This document shows positions 19,615 through 56,746 of a DNA stretch of 56,746 nucleotides, piece by piece (position 1 is the stretch's first letter; each line of letters opens with the position of its first letter). Source of the DNA: Candidatus Zambryskiibacteriota bacterium. GTDB taxonomy: Bacteria; Patescibacteriota; Minisyncoccia; Phycocordibacterales; WO2-35-19. A program made the position numbers and the translations under genes. Under the pieces are notes generated by a model. The model searched no databases. It was not told the origin of the DNA and was given only the letters and a program-made list of their open reading frames with translations. Location: NCBI GenBank assembly GCA_048499675.1, contig JASNZL010000001.1:1-56746 (forward strand). Reading direction: 5' to 3'.

Positions 19615-19865
19615 ATTATTTAATCTTAGACTGATAATATACTTATAATAATCGGACTATATCAAAATCTCCCTCCTTGTCCAACCAAAATGGTGGACTA
19701 CCCGTTGACTAATTTTTGTTGCAACTTTAGGTAATTTTGATAGAATAAATTTGTCTAATTTTAACAATTAGACAAAGGACTTTTAGGTCCTAGTTCCTCG
19801 GTAGCTTCTACCTGTCGGTAGACCTATCTCAACCGATAGGTAGACAGGAAGTTGGTGCAGAGCGT

Positions 19866-19938
19866 TCCTCGGTAGCTCAGTTGGTAGAGCGGCGAGCTGT
19901 TAACTCGTTGGTCGTAGGTTCGAGCCCTACCCGAGGAG
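19866..19938 (+). tRNA. tRNA-Asn (GTT)
   Basis: Manual cloverleaf: acceptor tcctcgg/ccgagga, D-arm gctc-agttggta-gagc, anticodon loop ctGTTaa, T-arm gtagg-ttcgagc-cctac. CCA is not encoded. Confidence 0.9.
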
Positions 19939-19939
19939 C
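19925..19939 (+). repeat. attL core (tRNA-Asn 3' end)
   Basis: Identical 15-mer at 31941-31955. Confidence 0.8.
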
Positions 19940-21561
19940 CCTAGTGACGAAACCTCACATTTTGTGGGGTTTTGTCTTATATGGCTTGATATTTTACAGG
20001 TTCGAGCGCGCTCTAATTCTTGCTCGACCGCCTGACGACTTTTTATGATTGTTTTAATGAAAGAATGGTAATTTACAAAGACTTTTTTGCCCTTTAGGGT
20101 GAGGTTCGAGCCAAGGCATGCGAGTATTGCTCGTTTGGCTTTATCATCTCCTTTTTCAAACCAAATGTGGGCGTAGCAAGCAAAGTCAAAGGTCTGCTCA
20201 GTGAGGTCTACCCATTCCAAAACTTCTCTGTTTTTGGTTTTCAATTCTTCTTCGAGTAATAACTTCTTTTTGACCATGGCAACCTTGAGTGTTTGGTATT
20301 CTTCATCGGTGATTATGACTCTCTCGCTGTTTGCCGGTGAGGTGAAGTTGAGTGTCAGTGATTGTAAATTCTTGGTAACTTCTTCAAGCTCTTTATGTTT
20401 ACCTTTGAGGACCAAGGTGTCGCTATCGACTTCAGTCTTTCTAAGTTCATGAAGGTGTTTTATTGCCCAGTCTTTGAATCTTTCTGAAATGGTAATCTCG
20501 CTGAGCTTGCCTTTGATATCAAGAATGAGGTCTTTAAGCTCTATGACTTTCTCAGGACACTTCACATCTACCTTTTTCTTGGTGCAGTTGTAGTAGACAT
20601 AGTGGTGAACATTGCCATTCTTACATCGCTTTACTTTTGCCTGGGCGGTGATGCTACAGCCACACGTTCCACATTTCATAAGGGAGGTGAAGGCAAAGCT
20701 ACGCTCGGGGCGTGGGCGTGGTTGCATAGTTCTGCCCATTATCTGTTGAACCTTGTTGAATTCTTCTTCGGTGATCATAGCCTCATGTGCGCCTTTGTGC
20801 CAATTGCCACTTTTGTATGGATATTCAAACCAACCGTAATAAAAAGGGTTGCTTAGAAGTGCATAGATACCGCTTTTTGATAAATGCTTGCCACCCATAT
20901 TTCTTCGCTGATATGTTTTCAAATTCAACTCCTTACGAGCCACGTCCCATATTTGTATCGTGCTGTAGTTACCAGTGAGCATGAGGTCGAATAATCTCTT
21001 TACTACTGGAAAGCGTTCAGGGTCCTTCATGATTGTCTTGAATCCCTTTTCTCTATCTGGCGTACTCATGTACCCGACCGGACACATGCTTGGTAGCCAG
21101 CCTTCTCGGACCTTCTTTGCTAAGCCTCGCTTTACGTTCACCGACAAGTCTCTGATGTACTGGTTCGCCATTCCAAGCTCTACCTGCATCATGAGGACGT
21201 TGTCTGTCGGATAGTAGGTTCGTCCGAAAGTCACGATCTGTGCGATTGCACTTTGCTGTAGCATCCAACTTATCTGTCCGCCGTCTACTGGGTTACGAGC
21301 AAGGCGGTCTAGTTTCCAGCAGATTATTCCATTAGCCTCACCTTTATAAATTCTCTCAAGCATTTTGTTGAAGACTGGTCTTCCTGGCTTTTTAGCTGAT
21401 TGTGATTCGGTAAGGACCTCGATTATCGCCAAACCTTGCTCTTCGGCAATCTTTAAGAGTTCATCTTTCTGGGCATCTATGGATGCCGCTTGTCTGTCTT
21501 CCGCCTCGCTTGATTTACGAGCGTAGAGGAAGTATTTGATTGTGGGTTTTGTATTATTCAT
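19927..21561 (-). CDS. Large serine recombinase (integrase)
   Basis: The N-terminal resolvase catalytic region YARKSS...DRLARN, a recombinase domain, a Cys-rich zinc ribbon (CGTCGC...YYNC) and a coiled-coil tail. The start is set at ATG 21561, an 8-nt overlap with the upstream gene. Confidence 0.85.
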   Translation of the reverse strand: MNNTKPTIKYFLYARKSSEAEDRQAASIDAQKDELLKIAEEQGLAIIEVLTESQSAKKPGRPVFNKMLERIYKGEANGIICWKLDRLARNPVDGGQISWMLQQSAIAQIVTFGRTYYPTDNVLMMQVELGMANQYIRDLSVNVKRGLAKKVREGWLPSMCPVGYMSTPDREKGFKTIMKDPERFPVVKRLFDLMLTGNYSTIQIWDVARKELNLKTYQRRNMGGKHLSKSGIYALLSNPFYYGWFEYPYKSGNWHKGAHEAMITEEEFNKVQQIMGRTMQPRPRPERSFAFTSLMKCGTCGCSITAQAKVKRCKNGNVHHYVYYNCTKKKVDVKCPEKVIELKDLILDIKGKLSEITISERFKDWAIKHLHELRKTEVDSDTLVLKGKHKELEEVTKNLQSLTLNFTSPANSERVIITDEEYQTLKVAMVKKKLLLEEELKTKNREVLEWVDLTEQTFDFACYAHIWFEKGDDKAKRAILACLGSNLTLKGKKVFVNYHSFIKTIIKSRQAVEQELERARTCKISSHIRQNPTKCEVSSLGLLG

Positions 21562-22459
21562 ATGCGCTTTTGATATTATCGTCCTCACGTTGTTTTTGCG
21601 TTGTATTATCAACGTAAGGGGTGTATGTCTCGGGGTTGTCATTTCCCGTTAATTTCCCGTATTTACGGGTATCTATCGTGTTGGCACTAGTGCCAACACG
21701 ATGAGTCTGTATTTCACCTGTTTTATCAGACACTTCGACCCTCATGTCTTCTGCTTTTTCGGCATTAGGGACAGTATTGCTAGAAGGCTCTGGAATAGCA
21801 ACTTTAGACGGGTCTTCTGGCATTTTGAATCTTTCCCTTAAAATATCTCCAATATTTTGTATTTTATTATTATAGTTTTCTCTTAGGTTAGTTAGATTGG
21901 CAGTAGCGCCCACACGATAGATTTCTTTTTTGCCAACACTGTGGGTAGTATTTTGCCAACTCGGTAACGGATCAGTGAGTTTAATCTTTTTAATATCCTT
22001 TGAGAGTGGTCGCCAATATCGGACCGATTGAAAGGTATACACATTCACAACCCTCATTCCTTTTTTGGACCGACGAATGCCAATGATCCCATATGCATTT
22101 AAAATTTTTAGAGCACTCATAATACTTCGAAGATTAGTACATCCTGATAAGTCTCGAATAGTCCTTACGCTTGGAAATGCATCTTGTCTTTTGAGATTGC
22201 AGTGGACCAATAAGGTGAGAAGTACTTGTGTGCAGGCAGGTGGAAACTTTGCAAGATATTGACCTCTTACATATTCATTATCAACAACAAACCTATTTGG
22301 TTTTTTCTTGCTACGAAGTGTGCTCGGGTCTACTTCATTTCTAACTTGATCGAGGTGTGTCTTTTTGAATTCCTGAAACTGCGCTACTCGTATTGGTGAT
22401 TTTTCTTTTTGATTGAGGATTTTTATCCATTCCTCGTTCAGTTTTATTTCTTCGTCCAT
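21554..22459 (-). CDS. Island protein with a winged-helix-like DNA-binding core (possible replication or regulatory protein)
   Basis: The segment VLLTLLVHCNLKRQDAFPSVRTIRDLSGCTNLRSIMSALKILNAYGIIGIRR resembles a wHTH. The start is uncertain (ATG 22459 chosen; the ORF is open to 22546). Confidence 0.5.
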   Translation of the reverse strand: MDEEIKLNEEWIKILNQKEKSPIRVAQFQEFKKTHLDQVRNEVDPSTLRSKKKPNRFVVDNEYVRGQYLAKFPPACTQVLLTLLVHCNLKRQDAFPSVRTIRDLSGCTNLRSIMSALKILNAYGIIGIRRSKKGMRVVNVYTFQSVRYWRPLSKDIKKIKLTDPLPSWQNTTHSVGKKEIYRVGATANLTNLRENYNNKIQNIGDILRERFKMPEDPSKVAIPEPSSNTVPNAEKAEDMRVEVSDKTGEIQTHRVGTSANTIDTRKYGKLTGNDNPETYTPYVDNTTQKQREDDNIKSAYE

Positions 22460-22616
22460 ATTCTTTGAGCCACTCTTTTTTGATCGGTCGATAGACAAAG
22501 TTAAAAAGAGTAAGCAAGTTAATTGCCTCATTAGCGAGAACTTCATCGGGAAGAACCGTACCGGTTTCCTGGCGATGTATTTCTTTATATTCTTCTAGTG
22601 CCTGTTTGGTAAGCAT
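22341..22616 (-). CDS. Small island protein; its 3' part overlaps the next gene in another frame
   Basis: The start is chosen at ATG 22616 (MLTKQALEEYKEIH...). The frame stays open to 22341, overlapping the 21554-22459 gene by 119 nt. Confidence 0.35.
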   Translation of the reverse strand: MLTKQALEEYKEIHRQETGTVLPDEVLANEAINLLTLFNFVYRPIKKEWLKEYGRRNKTERGMDKNPQSKRKITNTSSAVSGIQKDTPRSS

Positions 22617-23028: not shown

Positions 23029-24129
23029 TTAATTAATCTTTGTTAATTCTTTTAACAAAAACCACTCTCTTCCAAAAGACCAATTCCAATCACCGCGTTT
23101 ATCATCGTATTTGACTTTATATTTTTTGCATCCATATTTTGAATGAGATATTTCTAATATCTCAGCCTTGACTTGTCTTAGAACTAAAACCTTATCTCCA
23201 ACGACGAATGTATAATTTTGTGGTAAGTGATCCGTCTTTAAACCCTTAATAGCTTCTTTAATATCAGTATTACTTATTTCTTTTTCACCTATAGATACAA
23301 GATTTTTTAGAATATTAGAAGCTAGAACTGCAATTCTCGCATACAATGCTGTAACTTCTTGGTGATAATTACGTAGATTAAAATTGGGTCCTCCAGAAAA
23401 TCCGTGAATTACATCACTTGTTTCTGCATATAGTTGATATGACTCACCGACCATCTCTCTCAACCCATCTGTCATTCCTAGCATTACTTCTTCAAGTAAA
23501 TTTCGGAATGGTTTAAATAAATTCTTAATATCTCCGTCCTTTTTATAATCTTTATTATTGACGAGATAGAATGCATTTTTAACAGACATACTATTTAGTT
23601 CTGACCGAATTTCAGAAATAGCTTTGTTATCAAAGTCTAAATCAAAATCACAGAATTCCTTAGTATTACTCTTTCTTGAGTAAAAAGCTTTTAGATTTCT
23701 AAGAAGATGAAAGTACCTAAATGCTTTCTCCTTATCATTACTAATTTTCTCAAAATGAGTACTTTCTACAAATAATTCTAATATCCTCCTTAGCATAAGC
23801 CGAGCTTCAATTTCAAAATTTCTACCCACTATTTCACCGGCGCCATTATTAAGTTGTTCGTCTGAATATTGCGCAAGCTCTTTCCTGTACTTTGTATAAG
23901 AAATTCCACAAATCTGCAAAGATTCGCATGCGTTATATACATACTTCTCAATATTTTTATTTTTGGATAAATAGTCTTTTCCCCAGTCTTGTGTATCTGT
24001 TTTTGACGACACACTCTCTTTAAGAATATTCGGAAATAAAAACAATATCGGCCGAAAAAATCCATCATCAACATTTTGAAATGATTTTTTATTTCGAAAG
24101 ACTTTAATAAGTTTCTTAAACCATGTCAT
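23029..24129 (-). CDS. Unknown 366-aa protein, fourth gene of the R-M operon
   Basis: Its ATG overlaps the TAA of the upstream methyltransferase (TAATG). A helical N-terminal ~300 aa is followed by a small beta-rich, SH3/Tudor-like C-terminus (VGDKVLVLRQVKAEILEI...YKVKYDD). Confidence 0.6.
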   Translation of the reverse strand: MTWFKKLIKVFRNKKSFQNVDDGFFRPILFLFPNILKESVSSKTDTQDWGKDYLSKNKNIEKYVYNACESLQICGISYTKYRKELAQYSDEQLNNGAGEIVGRNFEIEARLMLRRILELFVESTHFEKISNDKEKAFRYFHLLRNLKAFYSRKSNTKEFCDFDLDFDNKAISEIRSELNSMSVKNAFYLVNNKDYKKDGDIKNLFKPFRNLLEEVMLGMTDGLREMVGESYQLYAETSDVIHGFSGGPNFNLRNYHQEVTALYARIAVLASNILKNLVSIGEKEISNTDIKEAIKGLKTDHLPQNYTFVVGDKVLVLRQVKAEILEISHSKYGCKKYKVKYDDKRGDWNWSFGREWFLLKELTKIN

Positions 24130-24890
24130 TATATTTTTTGAAACACAAAAAGGTGCTCATGCATTATCAATAAAAAGTTAGACTCTTTTGATTTAGTAAC
24201 CCAGAATCCAGTGGCCTTACAGTTGAACTGTCGCTTGATGATATCTTCTTTAAGAAGTAGTCCAGCCTTAAGAAAACGGTCCATAACCTTATAGGCGAGC
24301 GGTTGGTACATTTTCTTTCGTCTTGTATCTCCCATAAGGATTGCGCAAAACTTACCGGGCTTTAGGACCCTATAAAATTCCTTTGCCACCTTTTCCATCT
24401 CATCACAAAAGGCATCTATATCACTTATGTTTGATAGATCATCAACAAGTTTTCCTTCGCTGTATTTAATTATATCTACGTAGGGTGGATGGGTTAGAAT
24501 AAAGTCTATAGTCTCATCCTTAATTTTTGAAAGATTACGTGAATCCCATTTGAATCCTCTTTGCCATGCTTTGTTATCAACTTTAAAATTAAGCGCTTTC
24601 TTTGTGCGATCGAGTGCTATCTGATTCACATCAGAATAAATAATATTTCTATTCAAAATCTTCGCCTCTATAGCAGTAGTACCGCCACCGATCATTGAAT
24701 CAAGTAAAACATCACCTTCTTTTGAGTATCGAAGGATGAGATTACGAGCTACTTCAGGGGACCAATTGCCACGCCAGTCTGAAGTATGTGTGGCCCAGTT
24801 ACCACGACGAGGAAAAGCCCAGACTGTTGTACATTCTAGTTCAAATTCTTCCGGATGCAGTTTTAATTCTGTAGCTTTCTTTATTGCCAT
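24129..24890 (-). CDS. DNA methyltransferase (N6-adenine or N4-cytosine class)
   Basis: SAM motif VLLDSMIGGGTT followed by catalytic THPPY. This motif I then IV order differs from the beta-class DpnA. Confidence 0.75.
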   Translation of the reverse strand: MAIKKATELKLHPEEFELECTTVWAFPRRGNWATHTSDWRGNWSPEVARNLILRYSKEGDVLLDSMIGGGTTAIEAKILNRNIIYSDVNQIALDRTKKALNFKVDNKAWQRGFKWDSRNLSKIKDETIDFILTHPPYVDIIKYSEGKLVDDLSNISDIDAFCDEMEKVAKEFYRVLKPGKFCAILMGDTRRKKMYQPLAYKVMDRFLKAGLLLKEDIIKRQFNCKATGFWVTKSKESNFLLIMHEHLFVFQKI

Positions 24891-24896
24891 GAGTAT

Positions 24897-25754
24897 TTAC
24901 CATTTTAGTTCATTTAGTGCGCCTGATTCGAGCATATTGAGATTGAACACATACTCATTATGGTTGTATGTTTCTTCAAGAGGTCTCTTGGTTGTGTTCC
25001 AGCCTAATCCATCAGTTATCCAAATGAAATCAATATCTTGAGCTTTTAGTTCGTCGTAGAGACTTCTAAATTCTCCACAAACTGCTTTAAGTTTAGATCC
25101 ACCACCGTTATAAAAGTTAGCCTCAAATAGTTTAAGTTTCTTATTCTTGGTGTTGTATATAGCAAAGTCAAAGCTACGTTCTGATTTATCTACTTTCACA
25201 TCAAAACCCCATTTAGCTTTTATTGCACTAGGACGTGCTTGAGCAAGACACTCATAACCGTTCTTATTGCAGAAATCAGTTAAGAAAGCGCCTGTTATTT
25301 CTTCCATTAAAGTGCCACCACGATTCTTTCTTCCATTACTATCAAGACCCACCTCAACACCCATGACATAATCAACAAGGTTCTTAATACCATCTTTTTG
25401 GAAGAGTCGTGCAAGACCTGATTTGTCTAGGAATTCAAAATATTTATCAGCATTCTTTTCTTTACCAGTAAAATCAAAGAATTCGGAATTTTTGGTGGCC
25501 TTATCAAACACCTCGAGCTTGTTTTCTCGGACCGCTAATAGGACCGGAAGAGCTTTTACTATGTCAGGATTTGAACTGTAAAGTTTTATAAATTCTTCCT
25601 TTAAATTCTCCTTACCGAGTAGGTAGTTGAGCTTATTGAGAGCTATCTCCAACTCTGAGCTATTTGAAAATACCTTATTCCAATTAACGAAATAGTCCCA
25701 AGTTTTAATTGAGCTTTTGAATGTTGTTATTAAGTTATTAAAATCTTTTTTCAT
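24897..25754 (-). CDS. Type II restriction endonuclease, DpnII/MboI family (GATC)
   Basis: Blocks IKNLVDYVMGVEVGLDSNGRKNRGG, FYNGGGSKLKAV and FIWITDGLGW match my recollection of DpnII/MboI-family conserved blocks. It is flanked by two methyltransferases, as in the MboI system. Confidence 0.7.
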   Translation of the reverse strand: MKKDFNNLITTFKSSIKTWDYFVNWNKVFSNSSELEIALNKLNYLLGKENLKEEFIKLYSSNPDIVKALPVLLAVRENKLEVFDKATKNSEFFDFTGKEKNADKYFEFLDKSGLARLFQKDGIKNLVDYVMGVEVGLDSNGRKNRGGTLMEEITGAFLTDFCNKNGYECLAQARPSAIKAKWGFDVKVDKSERSFDFAIYNTKNKKLKLFEANFYNGGGSKLKAVCGEFRSLYDELKAQDIDFIWITDGLGWNTTKRPLEETYNHNEYVFNLNMLESGALNELKW

Positions 25755-25756
25755 AT

Positions 25757-26743
25757 TTAGTAATTTGTTACGAGAACCTCAGTTATTTTTCCTCTACCTG
25801 TTCCTTTTGAGTTGATTGCTCGGCCTGCCTCAACCTTATTAATCCTTATTCCTTTACATCCTGAGTAAATCTTATTGATGAATGGTGTATCTGAGTTTGA
25901 AAGCATTACATAGCATCCTCTCTTGTGTAGTTCGAGGACCGTATCTCTAAGTTCTATTTGTTCTTTATCAAGGAATGATTCTGCTGTGTACGATGTAAAC
26001 GATGCGGTCTTACTTACTGGGTAGTAGGGTGGATCAAAATAAACAAAGTCACCTTTTTTAGCTTTCTTGAGGACCTCTTTGTAATCCTGATGTTTTATTT
26101 CTATTCCCTGCAAAGCCTTAGAAACTTTTTTGAGGTTGTCTTCATCACAAATCAAAGGGTTAGTGTATTTACCATATGGCACATTAAATCCGCCCTTGCT
26201 GTTTACTCGATACATTCCGTTGAAACATGTTCTGTTGAGGAATATAAAACGTGAGGCAACATTCAAATCACTTAGTTTGTTCGGGTCCTGGGCACGAATC
26301 ATTAAGAAATATTCTTTATCAGTCTTGTGTTTCTTAAGAGATGCAATCAGTGCATCTACATCATTTTTAATAACGTTATATGTGGTAACGAGTTCTTTAT
26401 TTAAATCAGAAAGAAACCCTTTATCAGGAAGAAGATCAAAGAATACTGCGCCGCCACCGACAAATGGCTCAAAATATCTACCAGTTTTAATATCAAATAA
26501 TTCAGGTGGGTATAAATTTAATTTCCTGAATTGTGCGAGGAGTTGCCTTTTACCACCAACCCATTTGACGAATGGTTTTGGCTTTTCAGCAATTATTTTT
26601 GCAACGTCTTCAAATAGATTTTTCTTATCAGCAAGAGAATATAATCTATATGCAAAGATAGCATTAACATCAAATTTGTTTTGTATTTCTTTGATAGCTT
26701 GCTGAGTAGTCATACTTGGTATTTTAGCATTTTTAGCAACCAA
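25757..26743 (-). CDS. Dam-family (D12 class) N6-adenine DNA methyltransferase
   Basis: KWVGGKRQLL, FEPFVGGGAVFF and FVYFDPPYY motifs. The ORF starts at TTG 26743; an alternative ATG lies at 26713. Confidence 0.85.
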   Translation of the reverse strand: MVAKNAKIPSMTTQQAIKEIQNKFDVNAIFAYRLYSLADKKNLFEDVAKIIAEKPKPFVKWVGGKRQLLAQFRKLNLYPPELFDIKTGRYFEPFVGGGAVFFDLLPDKGFLSDLNKELVTTYNVIKNDVDALIASLKKHKTDKEYFLMIRAQDPNKLSDLNVASRFIFLNRTCFNGMYRVNSKGGFNVPYGKYTNPLICDEDNLKKVSKALQGIEIKHQDYKEVLKKAKKGDFVYFDPPYYPVSKTASFTSYTAESFLDKEQIELRDTVLELHKRGCYVMLSNSDTPFINKIYSGCKGIRINKVEAGRAINSKGTGRGKITEVLVTNY

Positions 26744-26782: not shown

Positions 26783-26986
26783 TCACTCTTTTTTGTACCA
26801 CTTTCGTTTCTCGTATTCATCCGGTCCCAACTCTTTACAAGACCATCGACCAAATCTAGCACCACAATCAAGGCACTGGATTTCACTTGTGCCATCATAG
26901 TGCTCGGGATGGTCCCACGAATACTCAATAAAGATAATCTTCTCACTTCTACATTTCTGACATTTTGTGTCATCGATTATTGGCAT
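26783..26986 (-). CDS. Small zinc-ribbon protein
   Basis: CQKC...CLDC spacing. Size is 67 aa. Confidence 0.45.
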   Translation of the reverse strand: MPIIDDTKCQKCRSEKIIFIEYSWDHPEHYDGTSEIQCLDCGARFGRWSCKELGPDEYEKRKWYKKE

Positions 26987-27294
26987 AGTTTATATTCTTT
27001 TAAAAAATCATTTAACAATTTCTTATTTCCTTTCATACCGACATGCCAAGTACAAACCTCTGATATTGGAATTATTTCTTTGTAGTCATAGATAGTGATG
27101 ACTGTTGGATTTCTTGATCTGGTTTTGAAGGACCATTCGGCTTTTGTCTTCCAATCGCCGAACATGCCATACATGTCTTTTGGTTGGCCGAGACACTTTA
27201 CAAGGTCGTCATACGAGGAAAGGATGTAGCCGACAAAACTTGTGCCTGTAATATCTTTTTCCTGTGCTTTTATAAACCTCTTTTTCATGCACAC
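26977..27294 (-). CDS. Hypothetical island protein
   Basis: ORF with protein-like composition, overlapping the downstream gene by 10 nt. Confidence 0.45.
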   Translation of the reverse strand: MCMKKRFIKAQEKDITGTSFVGYILSSYDDLVKCLGQPKDMYGMFGDWKTKAEWSFKTRSRNPTVITIYDYKEIIPISEVCTWHVGMKGNKKLLNDFLKEYKLCQ

Positions 27295-27388
27295 ACGAAC
27301 ATACCGGAAGATTTTGAGGAAGTCTAGTAAATTTTTAAGCCCTATTTCAAATACTTAAGAAAAAAACTACAATAGATAATATTAACCT

Positions 27389-30300
27389 ATGGCTAAAGCA
27401 ATATCTGAAAATACTTCAAAAAAGAATCAAGAAAGGCTGTTACGCCATGTTATTGAATCTGTGGGTCAGAAATATACGCCTGACTTGCATATTCCCTTAC
27501 CAATTGCAGAAGTTTTTGAAGGATTGGGCCGAACAAAAGAAGTTTTCTATGCCTTAAAGAAAGAGCTTCCCGAGTTAGTTACTAGTCGTGGATACATAGA
27601 ACGCAATAAAACCAAAGAGGTAGCTGAAGGAAAACAGAAAAAACTAATCGCTGAATTAGATACTCTTATAGAGGTAATTGGTCATGTCCCTAACTCAGGA
27701 ATCAGCACTTTTCCGACGAAACAAATGAGAAAACTTGTTCGAAGCATTGAGGAACGAGCTCATGATCTGATGAGGTTAATTTCAGCCGCTGAGCGCAAAG
27801 AGGAAGAAGCTAGTGGTAAAAAACGTGACGAATATTCTTCTTCAAAATATAGCTCTGAGACTAACGACTTACATCGTCTTTTAAATCAGACCTACGCAGT
27901 CCAAAAATTTCTAGGTAGTGATAGTTCGAAAGCTGCGAATAATCCATTCCTCCTTCTTACTGGAGAAGCCGGTACTGGCAAGACTCATCTCCTTTGTGCA
28001 ATTACAGAAGAACGCTTACAGAAAAATCTTCCAACATTCTTTTTTCTTGCTGAAGAGATTAATAGCCGAGATCCTTGGAGATCAATCTTAAAAGCCATCA
28101 ATGCCAGTGATGGAGAAGATAAATTTCTCAAAGAACTCAATGAGTTTGCTGCACGCAAAAAGGTGCGAGCTTTGATCGTTATTGATGCAATAAACGAAGC
28201 CCCTCGGCAAGTTACTTGGGAGCGATTAATCGAGATAAAGAAGTATCCTTGGATTGGTCTGGTTCTGAGTGTCAGAAATGGTTTTGAAGAGGAGTATACA
28301 ACTCAAACAATTAGAAAGTCTTTTGTTAGGGTTGAGCATAAAGGTTTTGCTTTAAGAGAGTGGGAGGCAGTAACAAAATACTTCAACCAGTATGGAATTC
28401 CATTGCCTGAAATTCCATTACTTTTGCCAGACTTTTCAAATCCATTATTCTTAACTATATTTTGCAAAACCCATAAGGGTGGGAAGAAGCAGATAAAGGG
28501 TCATGCAGGCTTCACAACTATTTTTGAAGACTATGTAATGCAACAAGGAGATGAAGTCCTGTCCTCTTTTGGTCTTCCTACTGGACGTGTAAAAGGTAAA
28601 CATTCGATATGGGATTTTGTATTCAAGGATATAGCTCTATCAATGAGTAAAGCTAATTCTGAAAGAATTTCCACAGCTGAAGCCGAAGCAATAATTATTA
28701 AGCATTTTCCAGCAGCTAACTCAACTCTATTTCTTGGAGCATTAGAGAAACACTTTTTATTATTCAGAATTCCGCACTACGACGAGAATTACAAAATCAA
28801 AGGATATGATTATAAATTTCCTTATCAAAAATTCAGCGATCACCTAATTGTTCGTTATCTTCTCATTGAACACTTAAACAGATCAGATCCCGAATCTTCA
28901 TTTAAACTTGGCACTCCATTGGGAGATATTCTCCATGCCTCTTGGCCTGATTATGGAATTATAGAAGCTCTTTCAATTCAAGTACCTGAATGGCTGAAAG
29001 GACGAGAATTGATTTTCCTGGCACCGCCAAAATTTCGAGCCACTGATGCTGCAAAACGAGCATTTCTAGCTAGTCTTGTGTGGCGCGAACTTGATCTCAA
29101 AGATGGTAAATCTCAAACGATAAGATACCGTCCTGTCATTAACTATTTCAATAAGCACCTGATTCATACACACTCAGAGGAATTGAAAAACACATTAATC
29201 TCTACAGCTCCGATTCCTTCTCATCCTTTTAACGCACACTTTCTCCACAAACATCTATCGGGAATGAAGATGCCGACGCGAGACCATAATTGGCTACCGT
29301 TCCTTAATCACCACTACGCTACTTATGGTGAAGACAGCTCCATAGATAGAATCATTTATTGGTCATGGAAAAGAAGTAATTCATTCCCATTATCGAATGA
29401 ATCCATAAAGCTAACAGCGATACCCTTGGCATGGTTCTTGGCTAGTTCAAATCGTTACTTACGAGATAGATCCACAAAAGCTCTTGTTGCACTGTTAGAG
29501 AAACATATTGATTCCCTTATTGAGTTGCTAAAGTCTTTTGAATCAATTGATGACCCGTACATTCTTGAGCGGCTATATGCTGTTGCATATGGCTGTGCAA
29601 TGAGAAGCCAAGACAAGGATGCTGTGGGCAAGCTAGCCCTCTATACTTACGAAACAATCTTTTCAAAAGGAAATCCTCCAGTTCATATAGTTTTAAGAGA
29701 TCATGCCAGAGGAGTCGTCGAGGCAGGTTTAATTCGCAACCCTCGATTACCAGTAAATAAAAAACTTATAAATCCTCCTTATGGTTCAAAGTGGCCAAAG
29801 ACTATCCCTTCGCTTAAATACTTGCAGAAAAAGTATGATTCCCAAAAAATCAAAAATCGTTTTGGCAAAGAGATAGATGCTTACGGCCAAATTTGGCACT
29901 CACTAATGTATGGAAGTCATGGCGGTCTTGGAGACTTTGGTAACTACGTTGTTGGTTCGGCTGTAGGACACTGGGCTGATGTTCCAATCAAAAAAGAAGA
30001 CAGACCTCCAACACGAAAAGAAATGTATAAGATGTTCCTCAGAGGTTTAACACCTGCACAACTTTTAAGGTGGAGACTCTATCAAGGGGCACGCTACCGC
30101 TATATTAAATCTAGACCATTATGGGCAATTTTGACCTATACAAAAAATTTAGAAGGAGAAGATAAGGAAAAACATGAGAAGGAGTTAACAAAAATATTTG
30201 CAAGAGAGAAACTGGTTGAAATGCGGCGCAAAGAGTTTGTTAAAGAACTTTCACCAAAGCAAAAGAAAATCTATGAAGACTGGATTGGTCCCTATCAAGA

Positions 30301-31540
30301 CAGAAATCCACATAAACCTAGAGACCTGGACCGTCAAGCAATAGAAAGACTTATATTCTCAACCATCATAAGACTTGGATGGGATCCTAAGTTATTTGCT
30401 GACTTTGATAACACAATTGATAGTCATGGAAGAGACGCAAAGAAAAGCGAACGTATTGGAAAGAAATATCAGTGGATCGCATTTCATGAAGTGCTCGCAC
30501 GAATTGCTGATAATTATGCATTTAAGGCTAATTGGTCGGATGAACTAAAAGACTATAAAGGTGTGTGGCAATTCTGGGACCGAGATTTGGACCCTTCAGT
30601 TTTATGGAATCAATCCCTCAGAAAACATGATGATGAGAAGTATCACATTTCATACTCTAATTGGAAACCTAGTCTCGCACCAACTCAGTGGCTGCAAATC
30701 AAAGATGATCTGCCATCTCAACCCAAAATGCTTCAAATCAAAGATGCGACTGGTAAGAACTGGTTAGTTCTCAAGCGTTGGTATACATGGAAACAACCTG
30801 ATACACCAGGACAGGAAAAATATAGCAAGATACGCAGAGAGGTATGGTATGTGACCCAGGCTTATCTTGTTCCGCGCAAGGACTCAGATGCATTCTTTGC
30901 ATGGGCAAAGAAACAAAATTTTATGGGTCGATGGATGCCAGAAGGTTTTGAGGTGCGCGAAGTTTATCTCCGAGAGTTTCCTTATCATATTGCTTATCGT
31001 GATTTATACAACGAGAATGGTGAGAAATTTAGATGGAAAGAAGTGCGAGCTGGCGATAGATCCAGTGAAAAGACTAAGTTCAAGGTTGTTTCAACTGATG
31101 AAGATTATTCATCAGAATTTAGCGGCTTCGACTGCTCAGGTGACGAGAGTTTTGGCTTGATGCTTCCTTCTAAGGAAATATGTGAACTCCTAGGACTTTC
31201 TTCTTCAGACGAAGACGGCGTATATATGCAAGGTAAGGAGATAGTGGCATTTGACCCCATTGTGCGAGGAGAAGCCCGAGGTTTAGTGGTTGAAAAAGCA
31301 AAACTTCAAAAGGCACTTGCAGATAATGAATTGGAATTGTTCTGGGTTGCAATTGGTGAAAAACAAGTTCTAGGAGGAATGGGAAATTTTATGGGAAGAC
31401 TTGAGATGGGTGGTGTCCATTGGTTGAAAAGTAATGGAAAGATAGATTCTCATACTTACACTAAATATTTACCTCCAGACAAACCCAAAGCATCTAAGCC
31501 AAAAAAAGATCCAAAAACACCCCTCGATTCTAACCTTTAA
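27389..31540 (+). CDS. 1383-aa STAND/NACHT-like P-loop NTPase; candidate single-gene defence protein
   Basis: Walker A LLLTGEAGTGKTHL (nt 27962-27985) and Walker B ALIVIDAINEA (nt 28172-28198). It has a long helical-repeat middle and an unassigned ~330-aa C-terminal domain. It sits in the island beside the R-M system. Confidence 0.7.
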   Translation: MAKAISENTSKKNQERLLRHVIESVGQKYTPDLHIPLPIAEVFEGLGRTKEVFYALKKELPELVTSRGYIERNKTKEVAEGKQKKLIAELDTLIEVIGHVPNSGISTFPTKQMRKLVRSIEERAHDLMRLISAAERKEEEASGKKRDEYSSSKYSSETNDLHRLLNQTYAVQKFLGSDSSKAANNPFLLLTGEAGTGKTHLLCAITEERLQKNLPTFFFLAEEINSRDPWRSILKAINASDGEDKFLKELNEFAARKKVRALIVIDAINEAPRQVTWERLIEIKKYPWIGLVLSVRNGFEEEYTTQTIRKSFVRVEHKGFALREWEAVTKYFNQYGIPLPEIPLLLPDFSNPLFLTIFCKTHKGGKKQIKGHAGFTTIFEDYVMQQGDEVLSSFGLPTGRVKGKHSIWDFVFKDIALSMSKANSERISTAEAEAIIIKHFPAANSTLFLGALEKHFLLFRIPHYDENYKIKGYDYKFPYQKFSDHLIVRYLLIEHLNRSDPESSFKLGTPLGDILHASWPDYGIIEALSIQVPEWLKGRELIFLAPPKFRATDAAKRAFLASLVWRELDLKDGKSQTIRYRPVINYFNKHLIHTHSEELKNTLISTAPIPSHPFNAHFLHKHLSGMKMPTRDHNWLPFLNHHYATYGEDSSIDRIIYWSWKRSNSFPLSNESIKLTAIPLAWFLASSNRYLRDRSTKALVALLEKHIDSLIELLKSFESIDDPYILERLYAVAYGCAMRSQDKDAVGKLALYTYETIFSKGNPPVHIVLRDHARGVVEAGLIRNPRLPVNKKLINPPYGSKWPKTIPSLKYLQKKYDSQKIKNRFGKEIDAYGQIWHSLMYGSHGGLGDFGNYVVGSAVGHWADVPIKKEDRPPTRKEMYKMFLRGLTPAQLLRWRLYQGARYRYIKSRPLWAILTYTKNLEGEDKEKHEKELTKIFAREKLVEMRRKEFVKELSPKQKKIYEDWIGPYQDRNPHKPRDLDRQAIERLIFSTIIRLGWDPKLFADFDNTIDSHGRDAKKSERIGKKYQWIAFHEVLARIADNYAFKANWSDELKDYKGVWQFWDRDLDPSVLWNQSLRKHDDEKYHISYSNWKPSLAPTQWLQIKDDLPSQPKMLQIKDATGKNWLVLKRWYTWKQPDTPGQEKYSKIRREVWYVTQAYLVPRKDSDAFFAWAKKQNFMGRWMPEGFEVREVYLREFPYHIAYRDLYNENGEKFRWKEVRAGDRSSEKTKFKVVSTDEDYSSEFSGFDCSGDESFGLMLPSKEICELLGLSSSDEDGVYMQGKEIVAFDPIVRGEARGLVVEKAKLQKALADNELELFWVAIGEKQVLGGMGNFMGRLEMGGVHWLKSNGKIDSHTYTKYLPPDKPKASKPKKDPKTPLDSNL

Positions 31541-31679
31541 ATTTCATCATTTCTTCAGCCGTCGGTCTCGTAATTCCAAAGAAACCCTGCTTGATATTTG
31601 GTAGCCAAATGTGAGCTTTATTCTCTTTCCAAAAGGTTCCAATTTCTCGTGCAATGTCGAGCCGCGTAAAGCAAATAAC

Positions 31680-31707
31680 AAAATTCCACATGAAAATGTG
31701 GAATTTT
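31680..31707 (+). terminator. Terminator hairpin after the NTPase gene
   Basis: 12-bp perfect stem aaaattccacat-gaaa-atgtggaatttt, followed by gttttattt. Confidence 0.65.
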
Positions 31708-31940
31708 GTTTTATTTGCCACGCGGCTACTCGGAGCAAGCAAACTGCTTTGCTTGCGTGTAGGGTGAAAAGCGAATACTTGGAGCTTTGCAAGACCTTTG
31801 ATAGTTTTTTACAAATTTATGAAGTAAAAAACAGAAAAGGTGTACAGCTTCTGTAAGAAGCGAAATCCTTCTCCCATATTTTTGAAAACCTCTGCTTTGA
31901 AAAAATGGGAAAGGTCTACTGGTTCTGTAAGCGGAGAGAC

Positions 31941-31955
31941 CCCTACCCGAGGAGC
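31941..31955 (+). repeat. attR core (displaced copy of the tRNA-Asn 3' end)
   Basis: Identical 15-mer at 19925-19939; no tRNA body is attached here. Confidence 0.8.
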
Positions 31956-31961
31956 TAATAC

Positions 31962-31990
31962 TTGACACTATTATTATAATATGCTATACT
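31962..31990 (+). promoter_or_regulatory. Consensus-like sigma70 promoter immediately outside attR
   Basis: TTGACA-N17-TATACT, followed by AGGAGG and ATG 32011. Confidence 0.6.
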
Positions 31991-32010
31991 TCAATGTAGG
32001 AGGTGTTACC

Positions 32011-32178
32011 ATGAGAGTTGGCTGTTTTGAATTTGGGGACGACTGCGAAGAGCCAGAGCGTCTCGAGGAAATTCTCAACAAGAAGCTTGAGGAGCTTGGT
32101 ATCTCGGCGGAAGACATCATCTCGATGTATCAACCGTCTGAGTACAATGTGACTCATGTCTTCTACAAGAAGAAGTAG
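32011..32178 (+). CDS. Small acidic hypothetical protein (55 aa)
   Basis: A strong SD (aggagg) lies 7 nt before the ATG at 32011. A promoter lies upstream and a terminator downstream. Confidence 0.6.
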   Translation: MRVGCFEFGDDCEEPERLEEILNKKLEELGISAEDIISMYQPSEYNVTHVFYKKK

Positions 32179-32218
32179 TCGTCTAGCGGAGTCGTTCGCT
32201 GGACGACTTTCGCTTTTA
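32179..32218 (+). terminator. Rho-independent terminator
   Basis: 11-bp stem gtcgtctagcg / cgctggacgac, followed by tttcgctttt. Confidence 0.6.
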
Positions 32219-32413
32219 TAAACCCTTCGAATCTGAAATCGGTTGATTTTGAAAAAATTCTAAAATCCCCTAAACATTAATTTGTTTTTGAATGGCAATC
32301 AATGCGTAGTTCTATACTTTTTTAATAATGAGCTCTTAAAAATCTTAAGTCGTCAGCAATAACTGTATTTGATTGTACAAAAACACATTAAACAAAAAGT
32401 CGCCTAGGCGACT

Positions 32414-32608
32414 TTAATTTTCTGAAGCTTTTTCATCTTCAGAGATTTCTTCGGGGTGCTCCAGCTTAATGTGGAGTTGCATAAAACCCCTTTCGATATT
32501 TTTGTTGCAATGTGGGCAAATAAAACAGCACGGCCCACAATGCATAATTCCACTACCCTCCTCGTGACAAGAGCAGTCACATTCATAACTTGATAGAACT
32601 TTTGACAT
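32414..32608 (-). CDS. Small Cys/His-rich zinc-finger protein
   Basis: The pattern C.C.CH....HCGPCC..CPHC...H...H in 64 aa. Confidence 0.5.
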   Translation of the reverse strand: MSKVLSSYECDCSCHEEGSGIMHCGPCCFICPHCNKNIERGFMQLHIKLEHPEEISEDEKASEN

Positions 32609-32714
32609 AATTTCTCCTAAAAACAGTTTATCAGGTTATATTTAAAAAAATAGTGCTTGGTTATATACTTTCCTTTTACAATTATTTGAGATAGATTAAG
32701 TTGAGAGAGGACGT

Positions 32715-33035
32715 ATGTCAAAAAAGAAATTGTCGGAAGAAGATGTTCGGAAACTTTTAGACCAAGGTATTCCGTGGCCAAGAGAACTTCAAGTAGATAA
32801 GGTCTATGCACGACTCCACGACGACCATGATGGCACAGAAGTAGGTGAGATTCTACTGGGATTTTCACCCGATGGAGACGTTTAGATTACCATACGTGGA
32901 GATATCGGATCATTTTTGAGGTTTAGAACACCTTTTGGCGGTGGTGGTAGTCCAAGAGTCAGAAATGCTCTTGTGTTACTTGCATTAGCTATTCATTTTG
33001 ACAATGAATCGGAAAATCGTGATAAGGGCTCTTAA
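32715..33035 (+). pseudogene. Small ORF interrupted by one in-frame TAG (56 + 49 codons)
   Basis: The reading frame runs from 32715, meets TAG at 32883-32885, and continues in the same frame to TAA at 33033-33035. Confidence 0.35.
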
Positions 33036-33117
33036 GATAAGAGCTCTTTCCTTTTGTAAATACACTTCAAACTAAAATATGCTAGAATAAATACATAATA
33101 AATTAATAATCAAAAAT

Positions 33118-33222
33118 ATGGCAAAAAGAAGCACAGGAGTGGGAAACAATAAAACTTCTCGCTCAAGAAAAACCAAAAAAAGAATCTTGGCAAAAGTTGC
33201 AAAAAAGAAAGCTAAAAAATAA
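33118..33222 (+). CDS. Possible 34-aa highly basic peptide
   Basis: MAKRSTGVGNNKTSRSRKTKKRILAKVAKKKAKK, ending just before a strong hairpin. No clear SD. Confidence 0.25.
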   Translation: MAKRSTGVGNNKTSRSRKTKKRILAKVAKKKAKK

Positions 33223-33225
33223 CCC

Positions 33226-33261
33226 AAAACAAAAGTTGTCGCTCCCGACAACTTTTGTTTT
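33226..33261 (-). terminator. Terminator of the atp operon (bidirectional hairpin)
   Basis: 16-bp perfect stem aaaacaaaagttgtcg-ctcc-cgacaacttttgtttt, 16 nt after the atpC stop. Confidence 0.8.
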
Positions 33262-33276
33262 ATATTTGTATAAATT

Positions 33277-56682: not shown

Positions 56683-56746
56683 TGCCAGAGGGGAGACTTG
56701 AACTCCCAAGCCTTTCGGCGCTCGATTTTGAGTCGAGTATGTTTAC
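56683..56746 (-). tRNA. tRNA-Leu (CAA), 5' part truncated by the window edge
   Basis: Minus strand: anticodon arm ctcga-ctCAAaa-tcgag, long variable arm gcc-gaaa-ggc, T-arm gggag-ttcaagt-ctccc, acceptor 3' strand ctctggc plus discriminator A. CCA is not encoded. Confidence 0.8.

Follow-up and report, generated by a model that had tools for sequence, protein, structure and literature searches.

The gene at 27389..31540 (+) of the window (the whole stretch of DNA analysed, 56,746 nucleotides) encodes a protein that, on sequence comparison, almost certainly belongs to the Avs2 (AVAST type 2) family, in a short form without the N-terminal effector. Unusual here is the architecture, which lacks the usual cell-killing domain; the family itself is already known. 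It is proposed, at somewhat less than even confidence, that the gene encodes a functional antiviral STAND NTPase of an effector-less ('short') lineage of this family.

Family identity and domain layout

The reading frame is intact (1383 aa, ATG start), and a STAND-type NTPase of this length with both Walker motifs was found as the original prediction had described it. Family placement was made with NCBIfam, PADLOC and the EcAvs2 structure 9O4E. The NCBIfam Avs2 equivalog NF041813.1 scored 1122 bits against a cut-off of 1000, residues 22-1349 covering model positions 1-1313 of 1317; six PADLOC Avs2 models matched the protein (top match E=0, 1164.7 bits); a PDB search returned 9O4E_A at E=5.3e-162, with query residues 21-1355 collinear with 177-1478 at about 37% identity, and the C-terminal 483 aa alone matched 9O4E at E=1.4e-54. 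Relatives are named 'AVAST type 2 anti-phage system protein Avs2' in RefSeq. Membership in Avs2 is independent of the effector, because the NCBIfam model starts only with the core.

The protein had first been read as a new kind of tripartite STAND/NACHT defence system whose two flanking domains were unassigned. Pfam alone would allow this, giving weak matches to AAA_22 (29.1 bits, residues 185-280) and NACHT (PF05729; 26.0 bits, residues 188-320) and none for the flanks. Against it stand the curated Avs2 models, which the protein matches above threshold over its full length, the solved Avs2 structure and relatives already annotated as avs2; since NCBIfam, PADLOC and 9O4E all place the protein in Avs2, the novelty of the system is rejected, and the reading is scarcely tenable. 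The N- and C-terminal domains called unassigned are covered by the end-to-end alignment with EcAvs2, and the domains fall in a known defence family, not in the non-defence family that would have refuted the original prediction; what the Avs2 match would support is an antiphage sensor of the Avs class encoded by one gene. Placement among bNACHT proteins was also considered and set aside, the NACHT score lying below the gathering threshold (26.0 against 26.7 bits) and the STAND P-loop fitting Avs2 better.

Five regions were delimited on the forward strand, most with approximate boundaries. The 'helical extension' (residues 1-185, approximate; 27389..27943) aligns over residues 21-190 to EcAvs2 177-345 and is all-alpha in an AF2 model that is otherwise poor; in fused Avs2 this extension is terminase-proximal and lies between effector and ATPase (PMC13601566). 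The STAND NTPase module (residues ~186-500, approximate; 27944..28888; Pfam AAA_22/NACHT) aligns to the EcAvs2 ATPase and holds Walker A (GEAGTGKT, residues 192-199, with K198; 27962..27985) and Walker B (ALIVIDAINE, residues 261-270, with D266 and E270; 28169..28198), both assigned from motif and conservation. The predicted DAINE signature and Walker A lysine are well conserved: G192, A194, G195, G197, K198, T199, D266 and E270 are invariant across 34 homologues; K198, D266, E270 and R296 are present in 45/45 members of the main short clade, and K198 in 85/85 long forms. There follow a TPR-like alpha-helical sensor array (residues ~501-1000, approximate; 28889..30388), collinear with EcAvs2 and named after PMC13601566; a C-terminal sensor region (residues ~1001-1355; 30389..31453), aligned to 9O4E 1056-1478; and a Lys/Pro-rich tail (residues 1356-1383; 31454..31537), outside the EcAvs2-aligned part, which ends at 1355. 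The closest homologues measure 1358-1384 aa.

The EcAvs2 C-terminus is the terminase sensor, and residue roles in contacting terminase or the bridging ATP were taken from PMC13601566. By alignment, most of these contact residues appear to be retained in the window protein, six of nine being conserved and two conservatively changed. EcAvs2 D981, in the TPR array, corresponds to D849 (kept in 44/45 of the short clade), R1132 to R1015 (40/45), E1362 to E1243 (27/45), E1444 to E1324 (43/45) and E1462 to E1339 (37/45); W1266 corresponds to Y1145 (Y in 38/45, F in 3/45), T1128 is replaced by S and R1130 by H, and E1364 has no counterpart.

The tRNA-Asn island and selection on its cargo

The gene is cargo of an island of about 12.0 kb in a CPR bacterium, integrated at tRNA-Asn (GTT; 19865..19941, +), and is its largest gene, as had been claimed. 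The 3' end of the tRNA holds attL (19925-19939), overlaps the recombinase stop and is repeated exactly, over 15 bp, at the right island edge as attR (31941..31955, +), which lies 400 bp after the Avs2 stop codon. The repeat, CCCTACCCGAGGAGC, matches the window at these two places, with a chance expectation of 0.00. A large serine recombinase (19927..21642, -; Pfam Resolvase, Recombinase and Zn_ribbon_recom) lies at the left end and drives the island. With recombinase domains and a duplicated target at both ends, this is a large-serine-recombinase integrative island; the same geometry at tRNA genes recurs in three surveyed loci (L010, L088, L101).

An HTH_36/replication-initiator-like protein (21554..22546, -; Pfam HTH_36; phrog_1032 replication initiation, E=7e-5) is encoded here and in the sister island L086. 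The adjoining restriction-modification (R-M) operon of the original prediction is DpnII-type, type II (24129..26743, -; Pfam; PADLOC REase_II and MTase_II), with a D12 (Dam-like) MTase (25757-26743, -; PF02086, E=4.5e-62), a DpnII REase (24897-25754, -; PF04556, E=1e-92) and an N4/N6 MTase (24129-24890, -; PF01555, E=1.9e-21). It is led by a pair of ORFs (26783..27294, -), one of 105 aa and a Zn-ribbon-like one of 67 aa, placed there by homologue contexts. The pair gave no match in Pfam, PADLOC or PHROG and is conserved in L086; at loci that lack Avs2, its homologues stand first in type I R-M operons, and it was ruled out as an Avs2 partner on these grounds. A 366-aa ORF of the island is absent from L086. 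No capsid, TerS or other satellite hallmark was found in the island with Pfam, PADLOC and PHROG.

Upstream of the gene lies a divergent, AT-rich intergenic spacer of 94 bp (27295..27388) with a weak sigma70-like match. Of the promoter and terminator proposed for the gene, the terminator held: a terminator-like hairpin with a 15-bp stem (31677..31710, +) lies 137 nt past the stop codon, within a longer inverted repeat (31660-31727). The promoter is plausible at most, the best -35/-10 match scoring 9/12 (27346-27373) and the region holding 18 promoter-like sites against 16.3 in shuffles, i.e., no excess. Against four relatives, pN/pS of the coding sequence was 0.15-0.22, and 0.11-0.29 across all four regions compared; the window gene and the short clade are under strong purifying selection in every region.

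Effector absence across the short-form lineage

The protein begins at PADLOC model position 176, equivalent to EcAvs2 residue 177, the point at which the effector is attached in other Avs2 proteins. A TAA at 27383-27385, in frame and two codons upstream of the ATG, limits any N-terminal extension to at most one codon. Six-frame scans of the flanks with profiles of three fused-effector types found no effector remnant, and the same three profiles found nothing among the neighbours of 54 short-form loci. The original prediction that neither flanking domain matches a known effector was correct in Pfam, PHROG and PADLOC, residues 1-185 included; the flanks match none because both are parts of the Avs2 core and the effector is absent altogether. 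Across tripartite Avs proteins the N-terminal effector is typical but variable, and the family models are not defined by it.

All of the best 120 database matches have the short form, their Walker A lying near residue 190, and short forms fall into two pure clades, of 45 loci (including the window) and of 5 loci. Effector absence is, as far as these comparisons indicate, a trait of the lineage and not specific to the window. Core length is 1370 aa in the short clade versus 1367 aa in effector-bearing forms, with no clade-specific insertion. The 45-member clade, at 26-37% pairwise identity, ranges over CPR, DPANN, other archaea and several bacterial phyla, its members in the genome sample being mostly CPR bacteria with a few archaea; this spread over many phyla implies that transfer of the single gene works.

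Neighbours were surveyed at 54 short-form versus 92 long-form Avs2 loci. The only neighbour enriched at short-form loci was the large serine recombinase, present within 5 kb at 13/54 short-form versus 2/92 long-form loci (p=4.7e-5). Neither BLAST clustering nor phmmer searches with immediate neighbours nor the fused-effector profiles revealed a partner gene conserved over the 54 short-form loci, and immediate neighbours are heterogeneous. R-M genes are co-located with short-form Avs2 in the window and in relatives. Independent stand-alone Mrr_cat genes lie on the same strand 142 and 48 bp downstream of Avs2 at two short-form loci (L085 and L095, respectively), and a T5orf172 gene lies 15 bp upstream, on the same strand, at a third (L094); in the minor 5-member clade a conserved 160-aa gene overlaps the Avs2 start. 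MBL neighbours were seen at 6/92 long-form loci but at none of the short-form ones, and trypsin-type extensions at five loci plus one singleton, all long forms.

Sensing, output and relation to known systems

EcAvs2 of E. coli (PDB 9O4E; Evans et al. 2026, PMC13601566) shares with the window protein the extension, STAND ATPase, TPR array and beta-rich C-terminal sensor; it differs in an N-terminal effector of about 176 aa of uncharacterised activity, in lacking the 28-aa Lys/Pro tail and in its enterobacterial host. Like most Avs2 proteins, which are Mrr-fused, KpAvs2 of Klebsiella pneumoniae (Béchon et al. 2024, PMC11564622) has the same NTPase/sensor core as the window protein and likewise occurs in defence-island or mobile contexts, but it kills through its N-terminal Mrr nuclease, a domain missing here, and is in operon with Avap1 and Avap2; radical-SAM/DUF6375 neighbours were not seen for the window gene. 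In Avs2-trypsin-MBL (bioRxiv 10.64898/2026.08.25.746987) the Avs2 core recognises the ATPase domain of terminase, again with bridging ATP; a trypsin-like domain is fused to this core and an MBL nuclease is linked to it, neither of which the sampled short forms have. Avs2 output can therefore run through a separate gene product. Avs1/Avs3 (e.g., SeAvs3, PDB 8DGC) follow the same logic, a STAND NTPase tetramerising on the phage large terminase, but their sensor is built differently and their effector is a Cap4 nuclease; the PDB sequence search with the window protein gave no significant Avs1/Avs3 match. In plant sensor/helper NLR pairs the sensor NLR has no executioner domain of its own, an analogy to short-form Avs2 and not a homology; no helper STAND linked to short-form Avs2 was found among the surveyed loci.

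The window protein probably senses terminase or a terminase-like ATPase, although the example of KpAvs2 reportedly shows triggers other than terminase to be possible in the family, which counts against terminase sensing, as does the modest identity of about 37% to EcAvs2. On the model of the EcAvs2 structure, the window protein would bind the ATPase domain of the phage large terminase in a pocket of extension, TPR array and C-terminal sensor, with bridging ATP, and would then oligomerise via the ATP-bound NTPase. In the least certain step, the oligomer would lock terminase in an inactive, ATP-sealed complex, so that packaging is blocked without host suicide. In EcAvs2, binding is in itself inhibitory: the bridging ATP closes off the active site of terminase, whose nuclease domain is partly unfolded (PMC13601566). 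Nothing fused or linked appears able to kill the cell, and output is therefore most likely self-contained; effector-independent terminase trapping is tentatively preferred as that output, at less than even confidence. Several points count against it. Nuclease-dead KpAvs2 (K71A) loses defence, binding alone being unprotective (PMC11564622), and every Avs family tested ceased to cause cell death once its effector was deleted or mutated (PMC13581612). Stoichiometric trapping would demand that a protein of 160 kDa be expressed at a substantial level, and the stand-alone nuclease genes beside a few short-form loci speak for another output. In every Avs characterised to our knowledge, NTPase-driven tetramerisation activates the effector by proximity; with NTPase motifs perfectly conserved, a downstream effector fits at least as well as trapping.

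Two options for protection are live, direct trapping of terminase or an unlinked effector. Abortive output by an effector in trans (an unlinked gene, a conserved host factor that the oligomer recruits or, resembling plant sensor/helper NLR pairs, a hetero-oligomer with an effector-bearing STAND) is a serious though doubtful possibility. It draws on the split arrangement of the 5-member clade, the separate Mrr_cat and T5orf172 genes, the fully conserved NTPase motifs, the action of Avs2-trypsin through a separate MBL nuclease (bioRxiv 10.64898/2026.08.25.746987) and the loss of function on effector loss in tested Avs (PMC11564622, PMC13581612). It is weakened by the lack of a partner conserved over the 54 loci, by a window island without a candidate (the small ORFs there are those of R-M operons, the 366-aa ORF is not in L086 and attR follows at 400 bp) and by a clade whose lone gene moves between phyla of bacteria and of archaea. 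Components of horizontally spread defence systems are normally linked.

Cryptic toxicity of the oligomerised core, by runaway NTP hydrolysis or clustered helical extensions, would likewise be abortive and need no separate effector; it would suit a clade self-sufficient as a single gene with strictly conserved NTPase motifs, but is improbable, given a core of the same length as in effector-bearing forms with no insertion, the polar first 20 residues of the window protein, an EcAvs2 extension that is engaged with terminase and not free (PMC13601566) and effector-inactive cores of effector-bearing forms that are non-toxic (PMC11564622, PMC13581612). No more is to be said for a non-defence or decaying gene, whether a truncated Avs2 relic or a domesticated terminase binder serving the island itself (e.g., one interfering with helper phage packaging), which is about as improbable. 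Absence of the effector, residence on an integrative element with a replication-initiator-like gene and enrichment of short forms on serine-recombinase elements would agree with it, but all regions are under purifying selection, 45 members as divergent as these still keep the catalytic residues and, for the most part, the contact residues, the truncation falls cleanly at the domain junction without frameshift or remnant, R-M genes are co-located here and in relatives, and the island carries no satellite hallmarks.

The broader proposal built on terminase trapping, that a deep and widespread Avs2 branch without executioner domain or partner protects non-suicidally, the oligomer itself being the weapon, is less likely still and is offered as a rather unlikely reading. 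If true, it would describe the first pattern-recognition STAND/NLR whose sensing step doubles as its effector step, and such non-suicidal defence might suit tiny episymbiotic cells, where altruistic suicide pays little.

Assignment of the 1383-aa protein to Avs2

The ORF at 27389-31540 (+) is confirmed, with an ATG start and 1383 aa, as are its Walker A (GEAGTGKT, residues 192-199, with K198) and Walker B (ALIVIDAINE, residues 261-270); an alignment of 34 homologues shows no variation at G192, A194, G195, G197, K198, T199, D266, and E270. The original prediction took the gene for a novel single-gene defence system. This claim falls because standard pipelines would label the gene Avs2; by every sequence criterion the protein belongs to Avs2 and would work as one. 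It looked novel by eye because Pfam alone yields marginal P-loop matches (AAA_22, 29.1 bits; NACHT, 26.0 bits against a cut-off of 26.7). PADLOC, one of the checks proposed at the time, returned Avs2, with six Avs2 models matching (best E = 0, 1164.7 bits). The NCBIfam equivalog NF041813.1, 'AVAST type 2 anti-phage system protein Avs2', matches residues 22-1349 with 1122 bits (cut-off 1000), and a PDB search aligned residues 21-1355 with Escherichia coli Avs2 (EcAvs2, PDB 9O4E, 1484 aa; E = 5e-162), the C-terminal 483 aa alone giving E = 1e-54. Plasmid-borne relatives of ~31% identity are annotated avs2 in RefSeq, and several short homologues carry the NCBI name Avs2. As a defence gene it is ordinary, and both PADLOC and NCBI PGAP would call it Avs2.

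Avs2 proteins comprise an N-terminal effector, a helical extension, a STAND ATPase, an elaborate TPR domain, and a beta-rich C-terminal sensor (PMC13601566). In EcAvs2, extension, TPR domain, and sensor jointly grip the phage large terminase by its ATPase domain; the interface is sealed by a third, 'bridging' ATP, and the complex is a flat tetramer (PMC13601566). Both domains previously left unassigned have a place in this plan: the N-terminal 190 aa, aligned to EcAvs2 177-345, are the helical extension, and the C-terminal ~330 aa are the Avs2 sensor (9O4E alignment). A single-sequence AlphaFold2 model of residues 1-340 had a mean pLDDT of 41, too poor for a fold search. Among the contact residues probed experimentally in EcAvs2, D981, R1132, W1266, E1362, E1444, and E1462 align with D849, R1015, Y1145, E1243, E1324, and E1339 of the window protein, respectively; T1128 and R1130 are replaced by S and H, and E1364 is without counterpart. 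Most of the mapped positions are conserved clade-wide. We regard family membership, domain order, and the intactness of motifs and contact residues as established. Unlike the usual tripartite Avs2, the window protein has no effector; the effector is the variable part of Avs2 and not the basis of its family models.

The PADLOC Avs2 model PDLC02165 (1375 positions, matched from position 42), at least, appears to represent short proteins, so that the short architecture is already catalogued, even if uncharacterised. A full-text literature search for effector-less Avs or STAND proteins retrieved nothing relevant; Gao et al. 2022 (Science) may already note the short architecture. A phage-borne origin is unsupported, given that phage records held only two weak partial relatives.

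The predicted terminator is matched by a terminator-like hairpin at 31677-31710, and the predicted promoter is only plausible, its best match in the 94-bp divergent spacer scoring 9/12 and such matches being no commoner than in shuffled sequences. An inverted repeat with 32-nt arms (78% complementary) surrounds this hairpin at 31660-31727, between stop codon and attR, and could be a terminator only, or a recombinase or regulatory site.

A short-form lineage and its absent effector

Against the best PADLOC model the window protein starts at position 176, and against EcAvs2 at residue 177; the effector is therefore absent. This is no annotation or assembly artefact, because an in-frame TAA lies two codons 5' of the ATG, the upstream neighbour is on the opposite strand, and profiles of three fused N-extension types, run against six frames of both flanks in search of a remnant, gave negative scores throughout. 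The same scores rule out a degraded effector. Lengthening of the ORF under an alternative genetic code is ruled out by the identity of the upstream stop, TAA, which to our knowledge no bacterial genetic code reads through. Purifying selection is established, and gene decay rejected, because pN/pS against four relatives (71-83% identity) is 0.11-0.29 in each of four regions.

The best 120 matches in a collection of 5.8 billion proteins measure 1267-1405 aa, save two partial sequences, with the Walker A at residues 180-219 in 117 of them (median 193). Loci were classed by the space available upstream of the Avs2 core; the 165 loci (160 related loci from GTDB genomes and metagenomes, four contigs of the closest homologues, and the window) comprised 59 short forms, 86 with a ~160-aa extension, 6 with an extension >200 aa, 1 intermediate, and 13 truncated. 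The N-extensions (n = 84) form four clusters. A PD-(D/E)xK-like motif was seen by eye in 68 (the representative being without a Pfam match), in agreement with the literature, where most Avs2 are said to bear Mrr-like nucleases; 10 are of a second, non-enzymatic-looking type, and 5 plus one singleton are trypsin-like (Trypsin_2 23.5 bits, under the cut-off).

On a midpoint-rooted neighbour-joining tree built from the core shared by 135 complete proteins, the 50 short forms fall into exactly two pure clades, one of 45 members that includes the window protein and one of 5. Within the larger clade, median pairwise identity is 37% and the lowest value 26%; K198, D266, E270, and R296 are present in 45/45, and no insertion sets the clade apart (core 1370 vs 1367 aa). 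Ten of its 15 loci from the GTDB scan are titled CPR (Parcu-, Roizman-, Levy-, Peregrini-, and Saccharibacteria, Paceibacterota) and three are archaeal; complete long-form loci from CPR, with a fused N-terminal extension, were not found in the GTDB genome scan. Other named short homologues come from WOR-3, Omnitrophota, Ratteibacteria, Thermoleophilia, Legionella, Desulfobacteraceae, and Argoarchaeum.

Neighbours, candidate partners, and the tRNA-Asn island

For 54 short and 92 long loci, every ORF lying no more than 5 kb away was clustered. Large serine recombinases are the one family enriched near short forms, at 13/54 loci against 2/92 for long forms (odds ratio 14, p = 4.7e-5). Other recurrent neighbours are Fic proteins, R-M subunits, and tyrosine recombinases, and MBL hydrolases occur beside long forms only. 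This survey, likewise proposed in the original prediction, revealed a defence-island or mobile context. Immediate neighbours within the large short clade are heterogeneous. Near the 54 short-form loci no conserved trans effector was found by BLAST clustering, and neither the three effector profiles run against their neighbours nor phmmer on the immediate neighbours gave a conserved family; an iterated Mrr_cat profile retrieved only its own seed among the short-form neighbours.

A few relatives depart from this picture. Stand-alone, mutually unrelated Mrr_cat genes lie 142 and 48 bp downstream of Avs2 on the same strand in two of the compared loci, L085 (14282-15196, +; with a hydrophobic N-terminal stretch, TM-segment-like by eye) and L095 (4620-5822, +; beside a short-form Avs2), and a T5orf172/MUG113 gene lies 15 bp upstream on the same strand in L094 (5007-6239, +). 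In a minority of lineages these nucleases may act as trans effectors; tblastn with the L085 gene found no Mrr partner in the window. In the 5-member clade, a conserved 160-aa gene overlaps the Avs2 start (L016 9358-9849; L024 9185-9667; also L112, L119, and L123); L016 and L024, the clade's two members from genomes, are cyanobacterial. The 160-aa gene has the look of an effector separated into a gene of its own. Its N-terminal ~12 residues (MEPFSVLAGVV...) are similar to those that open one N-extension type (MEPLSITVIAYV...); profile-level homology to the fused type was not detected. Split effectors thus exist in the Avs2 family, and are absent from most of the window's clade and from the window.

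The predicted mobile island, with an R-M operon next to the gene, is borne out by an att repeat, a recombinase, and a DpnII operon. The tRNA-Asn gene (19865-19941) abuts the recombinase gene, and its last 15 bases, CCCTACCCGAGGAGC, are repeated exactly at 31941-31955, 400 bp beyond the Avs2 stop codon, the pair delimiting an element of ~12.0 kb. In order, the island holds the recombinase, an HTH/replication-initiator-like gene, an orphan ORF, the DpnII R-M operon with two leader ORFs, and Avs2. G+C is 0.41-0.435 at the left end of the island (19-22 kb), 0.37-0.41 over Avs2, and ~0.31-0.33 in the left flank. The right flank is an F-type ATP synthase operon, its beta subunit closest (71-75%) to Magasanik-, Moranii-, Lloyd-, Falkow-, and Woykebacteria; a Parcubacteria MAG holds the nearest genomic Avs2, and the host is accordingly placed in CPR/Patescibacteria. 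Between attR and atpC, 1.3 kb (31956-33276) are dense with tiny, well-punctuated units, none with a family match: ORFs of 65 aa (31981-32178; 11/12 promoter match, own terminator), 64 aa (32414-32608, -; Cys-rich), 56 aa (32715-32885), and 34 aa (33118-33222; Lys/Arg-rich), the last followed by a perfect 16-bp hairpin (33226-33261). A partial tRNA at 56683-56746 (-) is cut by the window end and has an Rfam score exactly at threshold.

Among the closest homologues, Avs2 lies in the same island type in L086, alone between groEL and housekeeping genes in L083 and L084, and at tRNA-Asn with a decayed recombinase and the Mrr_cat gene in L085. In islands with short-form Avs2, a large serine recombinase is found at tRNA-Asn in the window (19865-21642) and L101 (15709-17455), at tRNA-Gly in L010 (7272-8888), at tRNA-Glu in L088 (6802-8537), and at tRNA-Gln in L118 (17077-18734), in all five with its 3' coding end overlapping or abutting the 3' end of the tRNA gene. 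Targeting of tRNA genes is a classic trait of tyrosine integrases; serine-recombinase defence islands that target tRNA genes may form a family in CPR and further uncultured lineages. A ~900-aa TrwB/TraG-like type IV secretion coupling protein is encoded ~50 bp before a short Avs2 in L055 (7236-9938; a Saccharibacteria MAG) and L118 (7283-9928; a metagenome contig), and the Avs2 of these loci may be borne on a conjugative element.

The only ORFs adjacent to the window Avs2, of 105 and 67 aa and divergent from it, are one case of a small ORF pair (window 26783-27294, -; L086 9322-9901; L247 7001-7539; L250 7001-7330), in which a ~105-117-aa protein and a Cys-rich, Zn-ribbon-like protein of 67-77 aa overlap by a few bases. 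The pair heads R-M operons of differing type, DpnII type II in the window and type I with Fic elsewhere, has no match in Pfam, PADLOC, or PHROG, and could be an unrecognised R-M leader/controller module. It is ruled out as an Avs2 partner, since its homologues also stand at the head of type I R-M operons where Avs2 is lacking. Also ruled out is the 366-aa ORF between the replication-initiator-like gene and the R-M operon (23029-24129, -; no Pfam, PADLOC, or PHROGs match), which is missing from the otherwise syntenic sister island L086. The absence of an effector and of a conserved partner and the mobile defence-island context are established; the lineage of the window gene is monophyletic, selectively maintained, and horizontally mobile, with neither effector nor conserved partner.

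Possible modes of action and their meaning

Judged from EcAvs2, the protein would engage the ATPase domain of terminase through a bridging ATP and would oligomerise. As output we tentatively favour a self-contained one, terminase trapping, because the lineage has travelled between bacterial and archaeal phyla as a lone gene, without any linked helper, and because EcAvs2 binding is intrinsically inhibitory, the active site being sealed and the terminase nuclease domain partly unfolded (PMC13601566). The main rival, to which we give a lower though still substantial probability, is an effector provided in trans. Klebsiella pneumoniae Avs2 with a dead effector gives no protection (PMC11564622), death was lost on effector deletion in all Avs families tested (PMC13581612), and the NTPase is strictly conserved, as proximity-activation of an effector would require; a few relatives do have split arrangements. 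Against this rival, no conserved partner was found among the neighbours of the 54 short-form loci. Cryptic toxicity of the core, relic status, and co-option by the island are minor alternatives.

All characterised Avs proteins require a fused or linked effector, and in published mutants the Avs core alone is not protective. The notable part is the architecture, a maintained mobile lineage with neither effector nor partner, unlike characterised Avs. The finding also records Avs2 and a tRNA-targeting serine-recombinase defence island among CPR bacteria. If an unlinked helper is needed, the lineage would be the bacterial counterpart to sensor/helper NLR pairs; if it protects alone, it would show that capture by an NLR-like receptor can neutralise a virus without cell killing, and the lineage would also yield a simple, non-toxic terminase-binding module.
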